IMG/VR virus record: IMGVR_UViG_3300045988_147305
Direction: 5' to 3' (one strand)
From: a virus
Lineage: Duplodnaviria; Heunggongvirae; Uroviricota; Caudoviricetes
Length of the DNA: 64,000 bases
Each line of letters opens with the position of its first letter. Position 1 is the first letter of the stretch. Below, one piece after another: positions 4,187 through 48,425 of the stretch. The position numbers and the translations under genes were made by a program. Under the pieces are notes generated by a model. That model did not search any database and was not told the origin of the DNA. It saw only the letters and a list, made by a program, of their open reading frames with translations.

Positions 4187-7100
4187 TCAACTCTCGCGTA
4201 GTCATTCATCAACGGATCATCAATTGACAGTGGCACCGTGCGCATAACGCCCGGTTGAGGCGTGCTGACCTTTACGACAGTTCCCTGGCCTTTCGCCGAG
4301 TCTTTAGTGTGCTCTTCAATCCTGGCAAGCAATGAGGTCATCTGCGCAAACAGCCGCTTCGTTTCACCATCAAGTGAAACGGTATTATCAGCCAACTGCA
4401 TTGTCGGCTTGGCACCGGAGCCGCCAAGGTCACTAATAACCTGTCCGTCTATCTGCATACGACCGGTTGGTTGCTGCAAATCGTTGGCGGCAGTCGTCAC
4501 CAGGGACGTGGAGGCTGGTTCAGGCGCATTATTTTTCCGCATCCCCGGCGAGTTGCGGAGTTTATCGAATAGTCCATCAATCCCCATTTGTGCGCCGAGT
4601 TGGTCAAAGTAACTTGAGTTGCTGGCCACCGGACGCGCCTCTTCAACTGGCATCGGAGTATCAACATACACATTGCCAGCTGCTGTTGCGGTCCCCTTCC
4701 CTCGTGCACGTTCTTCGAGCGTTCCCTGAACGACTTCCCGACGCATACCCCGGCCATTCATGAATTTGTTGACCAGATCGTTAACACCAACAGCATTGCC
4801 AATTTTGTCTACCAGACCGCCTTTCTCAAACGGGCTATCACCAGGGGTAAACGCCAGGCCAGTAGACTGATCGATAACAGCGTTATCAGGCAGCTTTTCG
4901 TGAATTGCTGGTGCGCTATGATCTACCTTAGAGCCATAAACGGCACCATTATTGAGCATCTGCTGATACCCTCTGACACGAGTAACATATTCGCCGGTAC
5001 CGGCGACTACTCTCCCCTTATCAACATGCCCCATACCAGCATGATAGGCAGCTATTGCACGACCCTGATCACCGTTATAACGGTTCATCAGCATACTTAG
5101 GTATCTGGCGGCACCATCAGCTGCTTTTCGTGTATCCATGGCATCAGCATCGCTGAGTCCAAGATCCTCCCTTGTACCTTTAGTGATCTGAAAAGCCCCA
5201 AGGGCAGATGAAAGTTTGTTCCCGTTTTTGTCTACTGGATTTCCAGTTCTCTGGCCTGCACTAGACTCTGCGGATGCAACTGCTGACAGAATCCCTTTTT
5301 CAAGCCCATACTTACGTTCAAGCTCATCAAAATAATCGGCATTGTCAGAAATCCATTGGTATCCGGCAGCATTTAATTTTGGCAAAGAAACATCCTTGCC
5401 ATTGTTAAATCGACGTTTATCTATCTCATATGCACTTAATGCTTCCTCCTTACCTGTAGCAGACTGGCCCAAGGCAGCATCAATTGTTTGTGCTGCTTTA
5501 TTTCCTGTTTCTACGGCATTTGCATTGATAATCTGATTAGCAGTTTCTTTAACTGTTTTATTGCTATCTTTCGCCATATCCAGGGCCGCATTTATCACGC
5601 GAGCAGCAATATTAGTCTGTTTGGCATCGGATTCAGCTTTAGAATCAGATGTCCCCTGCTGGCTATTAACCGGAGCTTTTAACTCTGGAGTGATTTCTTT
5701 CGCATTAGCCTCGCCGATCGGATTGGGTATTTTTGATACAATCATTGCCGCAGGGGTATTTTTAACGGCATCAACCGCTGCATCTAATGCTTTACCTGGT
5801 AAATTTTTAACCCCATCCCAAATATTACTAGCTGCCTCTTTAATGTGTTTCCCTGGGTTCTTAATGAAATCAATTGCACTATCAATTGCATCACTGAAAA
5901 CCTGTTTCAGGTTATCGACAGTAAAGAAGTCTTTGATGGCATCCAGCTTTTCAAGCAGCTTATTAGATGTATCGCTAAACCATGCTGAAACAGCATCACC
6001 AATCTTTGCTGTGTAATCATCGAACTTGGTAGAAATGGTGTCGCCAAGGTTAGAAATATATGTTTCTAAGTTGGTAATCCCACTATCAATGGCCTGGGCA
6101 ATACTTTCCGTCGAAAATGATTGCAACATATTGCCGATATCCTCAAATCCAAGTGATTTGAGAGCCTCACCAATGGCGCTGCTAATACCAGATACCAGTC
6201 CCCCCATATCAAGAACATTAGCTAACGTATAAGCGGCTTTTTGCTGGAATGATGGATCTTGTCCTGATTTAAGCCCAAACGCTCGACGTTGCGTTTCTGT
6301 ATCATTCCAACCGGTTACCGCATCATAAATACCTCCAGCCACTGTGCCGACTAGGGGAATTGCGCGTAACGCCCCTTTACCAACTGCCTTTAATCCAAGT
6401 TTACCTGCTGCCCGGGCAGCCAAATCTCCGCCTTCATGGGCGAGAGTCTTCTTGCCACCACCGCGTAGCATTCCTACAAGTTTCTTTGCCCCCAGAGCGC
6501 CAAAAGCGAGTGCTCCAGCTTTTTTCAGCATGCCACGCCCCATTAACAACGACGCGACGCCACCGGCCCCCTTCCCTAACAGGCTAAATAGTTTGGACAG
6601 CAAGCCGCCCTTCTTTTTCCCGGTGTTTTTGGCTATCTGATCAAGGGCGCTGAGAATCTTGTCATTGCCCTCTTTAATTTCGCTGGTCTGCTCCTGAAGT
6701 TCCTGAACCGTCCGTTTTTGGGTGTTAACCTGAACGACATCGGCACTATTTTGCGATTTACGCCTAAAAAAACCTTTTCTACGGCTGTTATCGTCATTGC
6801 CACGAATCACATCGGCAATAGACTTTCTGGCACCATTAAGCGATCCACCAACTTCTTTTGATATCCCGCCAAGCTCCTTCCCTGCTGCCCACAATGGACC
6901 AGCAACGGCATAACCTAACGCATCGACGGCACGAGTCTCTGAAGGGTTACCTATGCCTTCAGCTACTTTTGACAGTTTTTTTAATAAACCTGATTCAGCA
7001 TTTAGACGCTCATCATCCTCTTTGCGCCTGGCCTTTTCAGCACGTTCAGCACGGGCATCTTCCGCTGCGGCCTTACTCCCTGACTTTCCAATAAAACGAC

Positions 7101-42661: not shown

Positions 42662-42676
42662 AATTATTAGTGCAAT
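42662..42676 (-). promoter_or_regulatory. C1 operator-like site
   Basis: Reverse complement reads ATTGCACTAATAATT. Confidence 0.45.
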
Positions 42677-42733
42677 TTTGATTGTGAAATGTATCATTCT
42701 GCCCTTAAGTAGGTTCTTCACGAGGAAACAAAA

Positions 42734-42979
42734 TTGGCAGAACGTGTTGATGATGCAGAGCTGAGCATGAATCAGTTAGAAGCTCTCAAAGACATGGCCA
42801 TCGATAACATCAGAAAGCAGGCACAGGTCGTGAGCCAGGTATTTACAGGGAAGTGTCGTTACTGCAATGAATCGATTGAATCAGGCATTTATTGTGACGC
42901 TGAATGTGCGCAATGGCACAGGGAAGAGCAGGCCGCAAAACAGCGTAAATATGGCATGCGACCGGCAGGATTTGACTGA
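42734..42979 (+). CDS. Small zinc-ribbon protein
   Basis: 81 aa with C-x2-C-x9-C-x3-C. Confidence 0.45.
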   Translation: MAERVDDAELSMNQLEALKDMAIDNIRKQAQVVSQVFTGKCRYCNESIESGIYCDAECAQWHREEQAAKQRKYGMRPAGFD

Positions 42980-42981
42980 TT

Positions 42982-43560
42982 ATGTTGCGCTTTACTGAGG
43001 AAGAGTTTCAGGCTTTTAGTGAGCGTCGAAATAAGGGGCGGTCCAGGCCAAAAACCAAAAAGGATCCATTCTTATCGCCTGCGCCGGTAAAAGAAGTTTC
43101 TCCACATGCGAAGGCACTTGCAGCACTTGCAAAGAACCCAGACCTGCGCGACGGAAATTGCGAGCACTTCGAGCAGGTTTTCATTTTTGATTACTTCGAA
43201 CGCAAGCACCCTGACATCTATGAGCTGTTGCATGCAACGCCTAACGGAGGGAAACGTTCAAAAGCAACCGCCGGGAAAATGAAGGCTGAAGGGCAGAAAA
43301 AAGGTTATCCGGACATGAGTCTCGATAAAGCATGCGGTATTTATCACGGCATGCGAATTGAGCTTAAAGAACCAAATGGTAAAGCCCCGACGAAAGAGCA
43401 GATCGCCTGGATGCGCAGGCTTAGAGAGGAAGGTTACTACGTCGTTCTTGCGTACGGTGCAGAACAAGCGATTACCGCCATCCTGGAATACATAAGTCTT
43501 AAAAAGGGTGAGGCTATTGAGCATGTATTGAACGGCGATAAGTGGTTGCATGCTGCTTAA
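42982..43560 (+). CDS. VRR-NUC domain nuclease
   Basis: PD-(D/E)xK-type core (GYPDMSL...ELKEPNGKAPTKEQIAWMRRLREEGYYV) typical of VRR-NUC. Confidence 0.55.
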   Translation: MLRFTEEEFQAFSERRNKGRSRPKTKKDPFLSPAPVKEVSPHAKALAALAKNPDLRDGNCEHFEQVFIFDYFERKHPDIYELLHATPNGGKRSKATAGKMKAEGQKKGYPDMSLDKACGIYHGMRIELKEPNGKAPTKEQIAWMRRLREEGYYVVLAYGAEQAITAILEYISLKKGEAIEHVLNGDKWLHAA

Positions 43561-43723
43561 AATAATAAATTAATTAGTGCATGTGCGCTCTTTGTGGTAG
43601 TGCACTTTAACATCGGGAGAATAATCGTGTCATCCAAGGTTAATTATGAGTCGCTGGCATCGGTCATGCCGCGTAATGAACAGGAAACAGATGCTGTAGT
43701 GGACCCTGTAATCGCTGAAATGA

Positions 43724-44386
43724 ATGCTCGCCTGGAGGCTGAATTTGCAGCTGAGAATGAACATACCACCCAGGGCGACTAGGACTGTTTTTTGTGTCGG
43801 TAGCGGTCCGTCACTCACTCGTGAGGACTGTGCTGCTATAGAAAAAACTGGCTGTTCAATCATCGCGGTTAACAATTCCTGGCAGATGTTCGATGACATT
43901 TATGCCTTATACGCCGGTGATTTGTCATGGTGGAAGCAATACGGTTCCACCATACCGGGAGGGAGGTTCCGCAAAGTGACAGCCAACCTGGCGGCGGCGA
44001 AATCATTTTCGTTGGAGTACAGGCGATATTGTGGACCGGCGGAAGGGGTAAATAGCGGCGCGCAGGCTATCAGTCTGGCTGCTGAATCAGGGGCTGAAGT
44101 AGTGGTATTAGTCGGCTATGACTGTTCTCTGCAAAACGGCCTTCATTGGCATGGCGCGCACCCTCAAGCCCTACGGAATCCAACGCAGGTGTCTATTTCA
44201 AAATGGCAACAGCAGTTCCTGGATACCCGCAAAAAACACGCAGATTTACATATTTTGAATGCAAGTAGGAGCAGTGCAATTCAATGTTTCCCAAGAATAA
44301 ATTTAGAGGCAGTGATCGCGTTATTATCGTCGGCAGTGGCCCAAGCGCCGCAAACTTTGTTGCGCCGCGCGGAGTGCCGATTATAG
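43724..44386 (+). CDS. MptE/DUF115-like Rossmann-fold protein, paralog 1
   Basis: FCVGSGPSL ... IIAVNNS ... NSGAQAISLA ... VVLVGYD pattern; start uncertain. Confidence 0.4.
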   Translation: MLAWRLNLQLRMNIPPRATRTVFCVGSGPSLTREDCAAIEKTGCSIIAVNNSWQMFDDIYALYAGDLSWWKQYGSTIPGGRFRKVTANLAAAKSFSLEYRRYCGPAEGVNSGAQAISLAAESGAEVVVLVGYDCSLQNGLHWHGAHPQALRNPTQVSISKWQQQFLDTRKKHADLHILNASRSSAIQCFPRINLEAVIALLSSAVAQAPQTLLRRAECRL

Positions 44387-44910
44387 CGGTCAATGGGGCC
44401 ATCGACTGGCTGAACCGCGCTTCTTATTTTTTCACCCTTGATCCATCCCCAGACAATATGCGGCGCGTTGGTCGTGGCCGCCGTCGCCGTGGTGTTTGTT
44501 ATTGCATGGCACTACCCGATGTTAAAGAACGTGAAGTCAGAGATGGCGTTCTGTGCTTCCGTCGTGTGGCTGAACGCGGCATGGAGCCAAAAAATACGAA
44601 TTCTCCCGAGTGGTGGGCGTGGCGCTGGTCCGCACATTTCGGCCTTTGCGAAGATGAGAATGAAATTGCCAGCGGCAATAGTGCATATGGTGCTCTGAAC
44701 CTGGCTTTCCATATCGGATTCAAACATGTAGCTCTGGTGGGCGTTGACGCTACGCAAGAACTACGCGTTCACTCCGGCGGCACGCCAAAAAATCTAAGTC
44801 ACCTGCCTTTGTTATTCCAGTCTGCGCGTGAACAGATTGACGTTGTTTCATGCGGGAAAATGGGAGGTATTCCGCAGATGACTCTTAAAGAATGGCTGAA
44901 GAATACATGA
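44284..44910 (+). CDS. MptE/DUF115-like Rossmann-fold protein, paralog 2
   Basis: VIIVGSGPS ... IIAVNGA ... [10 protein letters not shown] ... VALVGVD, same pattern as the upstream gene. Confidence 0.4.
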
Positions 44911-45584
44911 TGGCACCCACAATTTATCACCGTATCGACGGTACCAAATACAGGAATGTCTGGGTTGTTGGTGATCTGCATGGTTGCTACACCAGACTGA
45001 TGTCCGAACTCCATCGTGTGGATTTTGACCCGGCGCAGGATTTACTGATATCGGTCGGCGACCTTATCGATCGCGGTACTGAAAATGTCGAATGTCTGGA
45101 ACTATTGCAGATGCCCTGGTTCAGGGCAGTGATGGGGAACCATGAGCGGCTGATGATTGATGCGTTAAGTCCAGATGGCAACGTGAATAACTGGCTAATG
45201 AATGGCGGACAATGGTTCTTCATGCTGGACACTGATCAGGAAATATTAGCCTGGGCGCTGGTGGAGCTGGTAAAGCGTCTGCCCTATATCATTGAGTTGA
45301 ACACCGGGCAAGAAACTATCGTTATAGCCCATGCCGACTATCCGGATAATGAATACCAATTCGGTAAGGAGGTGCCGCTTTTCAACGTTGTCTGGGCGCG
45401 CGAGCGTATCAGTGATTCGATGGATGATATTGGTGGCGAAATTTCGGGCGCAGATCGTTTTATCTTTGGTCACACTCCGGTGAAAAGCCCGAAGACATTC
45501 TGGAATCAGCAGTATATCGACACTGGTGCCGTATTTTGCGGAAACCTGACATTGATGAAAGTGAAAGGTGATGGTGCAGCATGA
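44892..45584 (+). CDS. pap: Ser/Thr protein phosphatase (lambda PPase-like; Pap)
   Basis: Calcineurin-like metallophosphatase motifs GDLHG, GDLIDRG, GNHE. Confidence 0.8.
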
Positions 45585-46282
45585 AGATTGCTTTAGTTTT
45601 TCGCTCTGGTGGTGACTATAACGCTTCCGATGTGCAGTGGCTGGTTAATCAACTGCCAAAAGACTATGAAATTATTTGCCTGACAGACCTGAAGTGTTTA
45701 CATGTACCTGGCGTCAAAGTTATCCCATTGATCAACCAGTGGCAAAAGTGCCGTGGCTGGTGGGCGAAAATCGAGTTGTTCCGACCGGATATAACCGATG
45801 ATCTGTTCTATCTGGATTTGGACACGGTTATTGCCGGTGATATACGCCCAATCCTAGAGCATCCACCAACCAGCTTCACCATGCTTAGGGATTTTTACCA
45901 TCCACAATATCGTGGCAGCGGTGCCCTGTGGATACCAAATAGTGTTAAAGCGCATATCTGGAGTTCATTCTGGCAAGATCCGGAAGGTTGGATTTCTCGT
46001 TGTGTCACTACTGAGTGCTGGGGTGACCAGGGGTTCTTACGAAAGGTTATGGGCGATGATACACCAGCATTTCAGGATCTGTATCCAGGATGGTTTGTAA
46101 GTTACAAGGCCGATGTTGTGGAACCTGGTTCAAAATATGCGAGCGCGCGTTACTCCAGGGGGAATGGGACATTACCAAAAGACTGCCGAATAATCTTTTT
46201 CCACGGCAAACCGCGACCTCGCGAAGTGTCAGAGGATTGGCTTCCCCTTATCAGCTCATTTTTTGAGCGAGAATCAGAATAA
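45581..46282 (+). CDS. GT-A-like nucleotide-sugar transferase (DxD motif)
   Basis: 233 aa with YLDLDTV. Confidence 0.45.
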
Positions 46283-46283
46283 T

Positions 46284-46349
46284 ATTGCTCTAATAATTCC
46301 ATATTTTTAAAACGTGATGTACACTCATCACGTTTTTTATTAGAGCAAT
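46284..46349. promoter_or_regulatory. Two inverted C1 operators flanking a terminator hairpin
   Basis: ATTGCTCTAATAATTCC (46284-46300), hairpin AACGTGATG/CATCACGTT plus T-run (46309-46340), reverse-complement ATTGCTCTAATAAAA (46335-46349). Confidence 0.65.
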
Positions 46350-46363
46350 CTACAAGGTGCACT

Positions 46364-46582
46364 ATGTGGCCATTCCGACGGAAATATCACTACTGGCTGA
46401 TCGCCTTTGTTACGCCGACCGGCGGTATCAGGCATGTCATCACCAGGTATCGCAACAAGAGACTCACCTTAGCCAGAATTTTACAGGCTGCCATAGGTGA
46501 GGGACTGGATACAAATTGCGTAGTCCTTCCTCCTTCATACTTAGGAAAAATGACCGAAGCACAAGCTAATACGGAACTTTGA
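46364..46582 (+). CDS. Small hypothetical protein
   Basis: 72-aa ORF directly after the operator pair. Confidence 0.35.
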   Translation: MWPFRRKYHYWLIAFVTPTGGIRHVITRYRNKRLTLARILQAAIGEGLDTNCVVLPPSYLGKMTEAQANTEL

Positions 46583-46583
46583 A

Positions 46584-47846
46584 ATGAGCACTTCAGCACA
46601 AAACCAATCAATCGAAAATGTATGTATCCCTGATGTCCTGAATGCCGGTATCCCGGCCATTATCCAGAACATCCGGGCCGCGCAACGCCGCGTTAGTTGT
46701 GATGACCTCACAGCACGTTTTTTTGATAATGCGGTTCAGTCAGCGGAGATGCTTCACGCACAGCTTATTGATGTTTATAACGCAGAAGCTGATAGCCATA
46801 ACTCCCTGGTAGATGCAGCTGAAAATATGCAGTTGGATCTCGGTCTGAAGGGTAAAGAAATTGAAGAGCTTCAGCTGGAAATTGAACATTTGAAACGCCA
46901 GCAACAGGACGCGATCGACGATGCGACGCATGACGCCAACCAGCGTGCTGATAATGCCGAACGTATAAGCATTGAGCTGGAAACAAAACTCAATGAAATG
47001 ACCGCGATGGTTGAACTGCGGAACTCACAGATTTCAACGCTAAAATCTCAATATAAAGAGATCATGAAACTTGATCCTTTTAACCTTGAGAAACGCTATA
47101 ACAAAGCTAAAAGCGAGCGACAGGAACTGCGTAAGCAGGTCGCCGACCTTAACCAACAGCTCAAAAAAACTATTAAAGATGCAAGCGAGGCGCGCGTGGC
47201 ATTTGCTAATAAAAAAGCAGAGGTTACCGCGCTGGTTAATGAGAATGCCAAATTTGCGACGCTCAAGAAGGAAATGTATGGCATTACTGAGCGCCGTTTC
47301 CCTGCAAGCAAACTTCATCCGACGTTAGGGCAAATCTCCTTCTTCCCGCGCCTCCTGGCTTATGGGATCTCATCGCCTAAAGAGTTCAATAACGAGCGTC
47401 CTTATATCGTTTCTAAGCTGGACTTTGCTTATCAGTTCTGCTGCGACATGGGCTATGCCATTGATATCCGAATCAACGAATGGTTGATGCCAAACTTCCA
47501 GCCGTTGGCAATTTTCCGCGAGTTCCAGCCGGAAGGTTGGGTAGAGTTCTTCCATGAATTGATCTGTAAAGAGATGGAAAGCCGTCGCCCGGAATTGGTC
47601 CGTCGAGTTGAGTGGGCGCAAGAGGTTATGTTGGCAGATGCAGAGCTGCCGTTCGAACCGGAATTCATTGATGATCTGGCAACTAAAGGGCTGCATACCC
47701 TGTTTGATGTGGTTACCCGCCGTCATGAGCAGTTGGTTGTCGAATTGGGTTTAGAGGAAACTGCGGCAAGAAGACTTCTCGATGTTTGCTATGCACGTAG
47801 CGATGCATGGGAAAAAGAGAACGGCGGCACTATTTACGTTCGCTGA
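46584..47846 (+). CDS. Coiled-coil protein of unknown function
   Basis: 420 aa; long predicted coiled coil at residues about 60-220. Confidence 0.45.
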   Translation: MSTSAQNQSIENVCIPDVLNAGIPAIIQNIRAAQRRVSCDDLTARFFDNAVQSAEMLHAQLIDVYNAEADSHNSLVDAAENMQLDLGLKGKEIEELQLEIEHLKRQQQDAIDDATHDANQRADNAERISIELETKLNEMTAMVELRNSQISTLKSQYKEIMKLDPFNLEKRYNKAKSERQELRKQVADLNQQLKKTIKDASEARVAFANKKAEVTALVNENAKFATLKKEMYGITERRFPASKLHPTLGQISFFPRLLAYGISSPKEFNNERPYIVSKLDFAYQFCCDMGYAIDIRINEWLMPNFQPLAIFREFQPEGWVEFFHELICKEMESRRPELVRRVEWAQEVMLADAELPFEPEFIDDLATKGLHTLFDVVTRRHEQLVVELGLEETAARRLLDVCYARSDAWEKENGGTIYVR

Positions 47847-47918
47847 TAGTTACAGTGTCACTTTTAATGCTGGTGGAGTGCTCCCACCAGCATTTTTTTC
47901 GTCCAATGAGGAGGGCAT

Positions 47919-48425
47919 TTGAGTATTTTCAATAAACACGCACACCAGGAACGTCCGTACATCGTCATAGTAGATATTGATGGGACGATATCAGAGGCAA
48001 CGGAAGACAGGCTGCATTTACTTCCACCACCTGGCAAAGGTGCATTAACAGAGCACTGGAACGAGTTTAACCTTGCCTGTGACACTGATGCTCCCATCAC
48101 TCCAGTTATTGATATGGTGCGCCAGTTGTCCGGCATTTACACCCTCTGGTTTGTAACCGGGCGCTGTGAGATAGCCAGGGATAAAACACGAGCCTGGTTG
48201 CGTAAGCACGTAACAAATGGGGCGGAGCCTTTGCTATCTATGCGTCCTGCCACCGATGACAGAAATGACGGTCCAGCAAAGATTGATCTCCTGAAGAAAA
48301 TTGGTCTAAGTAAAATTGCGTTCGCGCTGGAAGATAAGATTGAAGTGGCGCGTGTTTTCAGGAGTCACGGCGTACTTACGTTAATGGTCAGGGAGTATGA
48401 AAACGCGCTTCTCCATCAACAATAA
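47919..48425 (+). CDS. HAD-superfamily phosphatase-like protein
   Basis: N-terminal DIDGT motif; 168 aa. Confidence 0.5.
   Translation: MSIFNKHAHQERPYIVIVDIDGTISEATEDRLHLLPPPGKGALTEHWNEFNLACDTDAPITPVIDMVRQLSGIYTLWFVTGRCEIARDKTRAWLRKHVTNGAEPLLSMRPATDDRNDGPAKIDLLKKIGLSKIAFALEDKIEVARVFRSHGVLTLMVREYENALLHQQ

Follow-up and report, generated by a model that had tools for sequence, protein, structure and literature searches.

A conserved module of predicted glycosyltransferase genes in bacteriophage P1 and in other phages and elements

Bacteriophage P1 is among the most widely used phages in genetics, and about one-fifth of its genes carry placeholder names. The window analyzed here, a stretch of 64,000 nucleotides (IMG/VR virus record IMGVR_UViG_3300045988_147305), is P1 or a near-identical relative, its positions 43000-47500 sharing 99.4% identity with the P1 reference genome (NC_005856). 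Three of its genes, pmgO, pmgP and pmgQ, encode predicted glycosyltransferases and form a module whose gene order is conserved in many unrelated elements; a further candidate glycosyltransferase gene, dbn, lies approximately 6 kb from the cluster. The conserved synteny of the module is what is new, the fold labels themselves being already public in RefSeq and PHROGs. The folds and catalytic-type residues of the proteins, the paralogy of PmgO and PmgP, the conserved linkage with glycan enzymes, the embedding in structural operons, the regulatory signals, and the dispensability of the genes are all directly supported. [quoted passage not shown]

Predicted enzymes of the P1 cluster

An initial annotation, made from the sequence alone, had placed four open reading frames (ORFs) at 43724-46282. 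Its coordinates are correct, all four ORFs are on the + strand, and the genes are those named in P1 as pmgO (43724-44386), pmgP (44284-44910), ppp (44892-45584) and pmgQ (45581-46282). PmgO, of 220 amino acids (aa), is predicted to be a transferase made of one domain, with the PF01973 (Maf/MptE-like) fold, and kin to the GT42 sialyltransferases; PmgP (208 aa), the most widespread member of the module, is its distant paralogue. The GSGPS...IAVN...NSG...LVG.D pattern on which the two had been called adjacent paralogues is present in both translations, as VGSGPS (residues 25-30), IIAVNN (46-51), NSG (110-112) and LVGYD (129-133) in PmgO and as VGSGPS (16-21), IIAVNG (33-38), NSA (132-134) and LVGVD (151-155) in PmgP. 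Pairwise similarity by BLASTP is weak (E = 0.003, over the N-terminal 36 aa only). Comparison of the two family profiles with hhalign (33 sequences each) aligned 162 columns with a probability of 98.1% and E = 6.9e-14, and each protein matches the PHROG of the other. On these comparisons, PmgO and PmgP are distant paralogues, their similarity being beyond chance.

Residues invariant in the PmgO family include GPSL (28-31), N50, D66, S111-G112, GYDCS (131-135), H141 and H143, and the conserved motifs of PmgP are SGPSA, IAVNGA, FTLDPS, GNSA and GVDA. A joint core that is invariant or nearly so across both families (47 sequences) comprises GPS, AVN, D66, NS(G/A) and G-x-D133 (PmgO numbering).

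PF01973 (MptE-like, also Maf_flag10 or DUF115; Pfam gathering score 34.6 bits) is the sole Pfam family matched by the P1 proteins, at 23.4 bits for PmgO and 20.9 bits for PmgP and over the last 35 or so profile positions only. Among their relatives it is matched at E < 1e-3 by 27 of 33 for PmgO and 24 of 33 for PmgP (best 3e-8), with no other family found, and several relatives carry a precomputed PF01973 assignment. An AlphaFold2 model of PmgO, built on the family alignment, has a mean predicted local distance difference test score (pLDDT) of 86.2 and a predicted template modeling score (pTM) of 0.83. Its fold neighbors are, in order, the Maf glycosyltransferase (5mu5), MptE (8sd5), and then GT42 and GT29 sialyltransferases, with a match of 13.7 for Maf versus 10.6 for Cst. 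As modeled, PmgO thus has the same three-dimensional fold as the solved PF01973 members Maf and MptE. The MptE/Maf-type Rossmann-fold assignment offered in the initial annotation is borne out for PmgO by this model and extends to PmgP through the profile comparison; the searches with the PmgO model and with a merged PmgO and PmgP profile found transferase families. In BFVD, 28 viral proteins share the PmgO fold at E < 1e-3; most are uncharacterized, and many are about 180-225 aa long.

Searched against PDB, the merged profile found Campylobacter jejuni Cst-II first (E = 0.002, profile positions 2-147 in one collinear alignment); Cst-I followed at E = 0.013, and the best nine matches were all bacterial sialyltransferases. 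A single-family profile reached Cst at an E value of about 0.2 only; a single-sequence search of PDB with PmgO gave nothing meaningful, and NCBIfam gave no useful match for PmgO. The Cst-II alignment pairs GPSL with GNGPSL, AVN with the Asn of "CN", NSG with SG, and GYD with GID. Cst-I and Cst-II are GT42 lipooligosaccharide sialyltransferases, and Asn51 of Cst-II corresponds to an Asp that is invariant in both P1 families. The alignment stops before the region of the catalytic His188 of Cst-II; the invariant H141 and H143 of PmgO are without counterpart in PmgP.

Three residues have been found by experiment to be essential in Maf enzymes (preprint 10.1101/2020.06.03.131540): the first is acidic (E324 in MmMaf, D272 in CbMaf), the second is a Ser (S334 in CbMaf), and the third, 23 residues further on, is Asp or Asn. 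This pattern is matched in order and spacing by D66...S111...D133 in PmgO and D53...S133...D155 in PmgP (Ser-Asp spacing 22), residues that are invariant or nearly so across the 47 sequences. Maf is a 632-residue chain with an N-terminal Rossmann-like, a central catalytic, and a C-terminal helical domain, whereas PmgO and PmgP are a divergent pair of single domains that always have a GT8 enzyme linked to them; genes for flagella or for nonulosonic-acid synthesis are never linked, none having been found in the approximately 25 module loci examined. Because they are single domains and lack that gene linkage, they are not Maf orthologues; we predict that they are minimal relatives of the Maf catalytic domain and of the GT42 sialyltransferases.

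In NC_005856 and PHROGs, pmgO is already labeled "alpha-2,3-sialyltransferase," pmgQ "glycosyltransferase," and dbn "possible glycosyltransferase." To our knowledge, E. coli K-12 makes no CMP-sialic acid, and the first of these labels is therefore very likely wrong about the sugar. The sugar-modification capability that the initial annotation had thought not yet ascribed to P1 thus stands as regards the predicted enzymes but not as regards its novelty.

PmgQ (233 aa) has a GT-A fold of the GT8 type and is a predicted retaining glycosyltransferase, in agreement with its description as a GT-A-like protein with a DLD motif. Its family profile reaches GT8 structures in PDB at E = 9.4e-6. The DxD (D79-L-D81), which aligns with the DxD of Gat1 and GlyE, and the C-terminal H208 are invariant in 24 sequences and correspond to the GT8 metal ligands; the full invariant set is W60-W61-x-K63, D79-x-D81, G148-D149, S174, K176, H208-G209, P211 and P213. 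PmgQ is compact and shares only about 15% identity with the GT8 enzymes Gat1, GlyE, glycogenin and LgtC. No Pfam match was obtained at E up to 1, Glyco_transf_8 included, and NCBIfam gave no useful match.

The GT-B-like gene at 36815-37789 (+ strand) is dbn, and it bears the EX7E signature of GT4-type GT-B enzymes, as E240-x7-E248, both Glu being invariant in the family. Homologues align from residue 9 of the longer ORF (36791-37789), so that translation probably does begin at 36815. Dbn scores 23.9 bits against Pfam Glycos_transf_1 (cut-off 26.4 bits), a family matched by five of 43 relatives, and its family profile matches a solved glycosyltransferase (8xsg) through the EX7E segment at E = 0.0017. 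A single-sequence search of PDB gave nothing meaningful and NCBIfam no useful match. From its sequence, Dbn is a candidate GT4-type GT-B glycosyltransferase, an assignment in which we have moderate confidence.

The product of ppp, which sits between pmgP and pmgQ, is a Ser/Thr metallophosphatase (230 aa) of the lambda-PPase type: it matches PF00149 (Metallophos) over its full length at 59.3 bits (cut-off 21.5 bits), the NinI-like phrog_246 at E = 5e-113, and PRK11439 at 272 bits, under the equivalog cut-off of 326. The homology proposed in the initial annotation therefore holds, but not the name "Pap," which belongs to a separate gene. Placement of ppp between P and Q is limited to the P1 lineage, and we rejected Ppp as an integral member of the module, since it is absent from every non-P1 instance. 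Probably it is a P1-lineage insertion into a variable slot and functionally separate.

Conservation of the module in other phages and elements

About 25 non-P1 loci were assembled from a species-dereplicated genome scan, exact-protein look-ups, and an annotated phage collection, with gene positions determined by tblastn; a scan of viral contigs with the PmgP alignment yielded near-identical P1 copies only, with no diversity. Wherever the flank of a PmgP locus was long enough, a homologue of PmgQ lay within 5 kb, and in most cases one of PmgO was present too. The module occurs in elements of Proteobacteria, Bacteroidota and Gemmatimonadota, and all named hosts are Gram-negative; they include Enterobacterales, Pseudomonas, Zhongshania, Microbulbifer, Alloalcanivorax, Methylophilaceae, Brevundimonas and Longimicrobiales, as well as Xanthomonas and Stenotrophomonas (jumbo phages) and a Flavobacteriaceae genome (Sinomicrobium). 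The idea of a glycosyl-transfer module raised in the initial annotation thus gains from a gene order that is conserved in many unrelated elements.

The slot between P and Q is variable in content. It holds a conserved S-adenosylmethionine-type methyltransferase at five loci (L095, L098, L100, L102 and L103), FkbM methyltransferases at L101 and L102, and a carbohydrate-type sulfotransferase at L104. Xanthomonas phage XacN1 (L111, 4324-6946) encodes PmgO-like ORF375, PmgP-like ORF374, and, in ORF373, a TylF-type sugar O-methyltransferase fused to the PmgQ-like GT8 domain. Coliphage EP_H11 has the order O-P-Dbn-Q, its slot being filled by a homologue of Dbn (49% identity, E = 2e-96), and in Buttiauxella a Dbn homologue lies 3 kb from a Q-P pair. 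The occupants of the slot are glycan-extending or glycan-tailoring enzymes. This is a strong argument that the product is a glycan, and it connects dbn with the cluster, as the initial annotation had suspected. No donor-synthesis gene was found in any module locus.

At least seven loci, including phage D3, carry the module inside a head or structural gene cluster. The order at L004, L095, L097 and L104 is terminase, portal, protease, major capsid protein, (O)-P-(slot)-Q, head-tail connectors, and in D3 the PmgO homologue (orf6.5/orf7) directly follows the major head gene. L100, which has a different capsid family, and L098, where the module follows adaptor and head-closure genes, also place it within structural clusters. 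In late structural operons of phages other than P1, the module genes are co-directional, with overlapping stop and start codons. A different arrangement is found in Pseudescherichia and related genomes (L089-L093) and in Serratia plymuthica (L003), where the three module genes lie in chromosomal islands, on different strands and interspersed with genes for surface proteins: an inverse autotransporter of 1166 aa that has seven Big_1 domains, a protein with Big_1 and RCC1 domains, and other Big_1 proteins. The module stands beside lysis genes at L003 and L099.

Several further features of these loci were recorded. In D3 (L110, 5691-6409) the PmgO-like match, over residues 20-198, stays in a single frame from 5855 to 6388, and so the annotation may be wrong both in starting orf7 at 5951 and in making orf6.5 a separate gene. 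Citrobacter phage phiNP (L107) has an unannotated PmgO-like ORF at 5504-6049 (41% identity, E = 1e-40), flanked by Rz and by a gene annotated as alpha-2,3-sialyltransferase. A family of about 190 aa adjoins P or Q at L004 (9254-9835), L094 (2159-2731) and L096 (959-1378); it has no significant Pfam or PHROG match (nucleotide-diphospho-sugar transferase at a nonsignificant E = 0.026) and is possibly a further slot enzyme. In the lytic phage contig L105 (4422-13630), QueC-like, primase-like, deoxynucleoside monophosphate (dNMP) kinase, ThyX and MazG genes surround the P-Q pair.

Regulation, dispensability and gene layout in P1

Upstream of pmgL, on the + strand at 42627-42645, is the late promoter LPpmgL (annotated in NC_005856 at 78495-78513); over 42600-42740 the window and the reference show 100% identity. 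The sole strong intrinsic terminator downstream of it is at 47866-47894, after pmgS, and LPpmgL could by read-through drive late transcription through the cluster. The P1 record also annotates, upstream of pmgN, a predicted sigma-70 promoter, PpmgN (43528-43554, + strand), and an operator for the C1 repressor, Oppp (43567-43583, - strand), their coordinates being transferred here with an offset of 35868; the same operator is annotated in P7 as Op(hdm). Together they imply that the operon is repressed in the lysogen. Taken with the late promoter and the position of the terminator, the C1 operator indicates that the module is expressed in lytic rather than lysogenic growth. A role in lysogenic conversion was judged unlikely, given that operator and the embedding in a late operon.

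By CRISPR interference (CRISPRi) and by single-gene deletion alike, plaques form without pmgO, pmgP, ppp, pmgQ or dbn, and single-gene knockouts of the pmg cluster or dbn leave anti-restriction activity unchanged (PMC9024508 for the knockouts). None of the five products is named among virion components in the main text of the P1 proteomics paper or in the cryo-electron microscopy (cryo-EM) models; their role is enzymatic and not structural. The operon opens with pmgN (43627-43782, + strand), a 51-aa acidic ORF with no family match in NCBIfam or PADLOC. It was scored essential by CRISPRi and nonessential by deletion, a discrepancy that is not polar, because guides on the downstream pmgO, pmgP, ppp and pmgQ are neutral.

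The overlap of pmgN with pmgO may be an annotation artifact: the annotated start of PmgO (43724) is probably too far upstream, since model residues 1-17 are of low confidence and most homologues start near residues 12-20, the second Met being residue 12. The 103-nt overlap of pmgO and pmgP (44284-44386) spans the poorly conserved tail of PmgO and head of PmgP, and relatives from Pantoea (L087) and Chimaeribacter (L088) retain a similar one of about 97 nt. On either side of the cluster lies an enzyme of a type that processes nucleic acid ends: PmgM (42982-43560), a VRR-NUC nuclease-like protein, and Pap (47919-48425), a haloacid dehalogenase (HAD)-type phosphatase distinct from Ppp and resembling the phosphatase domain of polynucleotide kinase-phosphatase (PNKP; PF25109, 44 bits). 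PADLOC, run on six proteins, returned nothing and so gave no sign of a known defense-system component.

The gene names, which denote a "putative morphogenetic function," rest only on position and on resemblance to D3 orf7; the P7 record, in which the genes are hdmA-D for "head morphogenesis," cites the D3 resemblance. A misspelling in the P1 record, "norphogenetic protein" (gp089), has become the product name in many NCBI entries from several genera.

Possible function and its alternatives

By analogy with Maf and GT42 enzymes, PmgO and PmgP would transfer a CMP-activated ulosonic acid. Their donor would be host CMP-Kdo, the most economical choice because no genes for donor synthesis accompany the module and every named host is Gram-negative; in E. 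coli BL21, Maf enzymes transfer Kdo from the host CMP-Kdo pool onto protein Ser/Thr (PMC11339370). PmgQ would be a retaining GT8-type hexosyltransferase dependent on Mn2+ and its DxD, presumably using UDP-Glc or UDP-Gal (uridine diphosphate-linked glucose or galactose), and Dbn, as a GT4-type GT-B enzyme, would be the fourth member of a soluble glycan-building set made during lytic growth. The acceptor would most likely be a phage structural protein and the product a short glycan O-linked at the surface of the particle, dispensable for laboratory plaques but plausibly affecting particle stability, adsorption or recognition. Donor and acceptor are what we infer here, as is the making of any glycan at all; the initial annotation had named virion protein, DNA and host envelope as targets without choosing among them. 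A more general form of the proposal, in which P1, D3 and many phages of Gram-negative bacteria carry on their particles a short O-linked glycan begun by minimal Maf-like enzymes with host CMP-Kdo, extended by GT8 (and GT4) enzymes, and variably methylated or sulfated, is unlikely to hold as a whole.

A number of observations weigh against glycosylation of virion proteins. Both P1 proteins fall under the PF01973 cut-off of 34.6 bits; the agreement with the essential Maf residues is one of motif order and spacing, not of residue-level superposition; and PmgO and PmgP have neither the N- nor the C-terminal domain of Maf, so that acceptor recognition is not transferable from it. In P1 itself the cluster is not adjacent to the capsid gene. 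The capsid proteins of the capsid-adjacent loci (L004, L095, L097, L104 and D3) are related to one another (34-74% identity), and that arrangement may reflect one old, long-maintained acquisition instead of independent events. Elsewhere the module lies between lysis genes and terminase (L103 and phiNP) or among nucleotide-metabolism genes (L101, L105 and XacN1), and at L106 the P-Q genes are a chromosomal orphan pair. The literature searched reports no glycan on P1 particles, and modifications were not a subject of the proteomics paper on the P1 virion. A cryo-EM study at 3.2-3.5 Å in which gp23 and most virion proteins were modeled mentions no glycan (PMC12810830); it did not resolve the fibers, UpfB, or some portions of DarA and Hdf, and glycans that are short and flexible can readily escape such a study.

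A different acceptor would be the lipopolysaccharide (LPS) core, or another envelope glycan of the host, modified during infection such that a change of receptor prevents loss of progeny on debris or blocks superinfection. The enzyme families fit, and the receptor of P1 is LPS (core glucose). Known envelope-conversion genes, however, are expressed from the prophage, and the C1 operator in P1 and the late structural operons elsewhere would confine the action of the module to the minutes before lysis. The better fold match to the protein-modifying Maf than to Cst and the Maf-like acidic residue in place of Asn51 of Cst-II also speak against this alternative, as does the link to adhesin genes, which suggests protein acceptors; we regard it as rather unlikely.

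The same adhesin link bears on whether the acceptor is a protein outside the virion, either on the host surface (adhesin or flagellin) or in the cytoplasm, that is modified in the course of host takeover. The islands in which the three genes are interleaved with inverse-autotransporter and Big_1 proteins, the orphan P-Q pair in its non-phage chromosomal context, and the action of Maf enzymes on flagellin are consistent with such an acceptor. Yet most instances of the module are in phages, many of them inside structural operons, and no consistent host-protein partner accompanies the phage copies, which makes it quite unlikely.

The fold that PmgO and PmgP have in common with MptE and thiamine pyrophosphokinase could instead mean that ATP is their donor and pyrophosphate the group they move, onto a sugar or another small molecule, a product that Ppp might reverse or process. 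This is improbable: the sequence profiles choose sialyltransferases and not kinases, the best fold match is a glycosyltransferase, the neighbors are consistently glycosyltransferases and sugar-tailoring enzymes, and Ppp is missing outside the P1 lineage.

Gene sets such as that around the P-Q pair of L105 are typical of phages with modified DNA. Glycosylation of phage DNA or of a nucleotide precursor as an anti-restriction measure, with which the ribonucleotide reductase genes adjoining the module at L101 and in XacN1 and the P1 neighbors PmgM and Pap would also agree, is nevertheless very improbable, since the DNA of P1 is a standard substrate for restriction and the phage relies on Dar proteins for anti-restriction (PMC9024508), the single-gene knockouts did not alter that activity, most loci have no base-hydroxymethylation gene with the module, known DNA glucosyltransferases differ in fold, and the capsid-adjacent position would be left unexplained.

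Our literature search found no paper describing the O-P-Q module, its variable tailoring slot, the dbn link or the capsid-side position, and no functional study of pmgO, pmgP or pmgQ, of dbn as a glycosyltransferase, or of DUF115/MptE-like/PF01973 proteins in phage; one apparent match on DUF115 in phage in fact concerned DUF1156. Virus-encoded glycosylation of virions is known from mycobacteriophages (Freeman et al. 2023) and from chlorovirus PBCV-1, with its capsid glycosyltransferase A64R. Those systems have glycosylation proven by mass spectrometry and employ different enzyme families, and they are not known to involve Maf-like enzymes, whereas the P1-type module has Gram-negative hosts and a predicted role in glycosylation.

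Were a Kdo-initiated O-glycan to be present on the virion, phages of Gram-negative hosts would have their first described system of virion glycosylation, and protein O-Kdo-sylation its first natural case. Were the target LPS or DNA instead, the module would still be an undescribed and widespread auxiliary system. For the glyco-engineering of proteins in E. coli, the single-domain Maf-like enzymes would be attractive minimal tools. Glycosylated particles would bear on phage stability and adsorption, on P1-derived vectors, and on immune recognition of therapeutic phages, an effect of glycosylation reported for mycobacteriophages. For P1 itself, a portable glycan-building cassette would give a set of placeholder genes a testable function and explain why they are dispensable in plaque assays.

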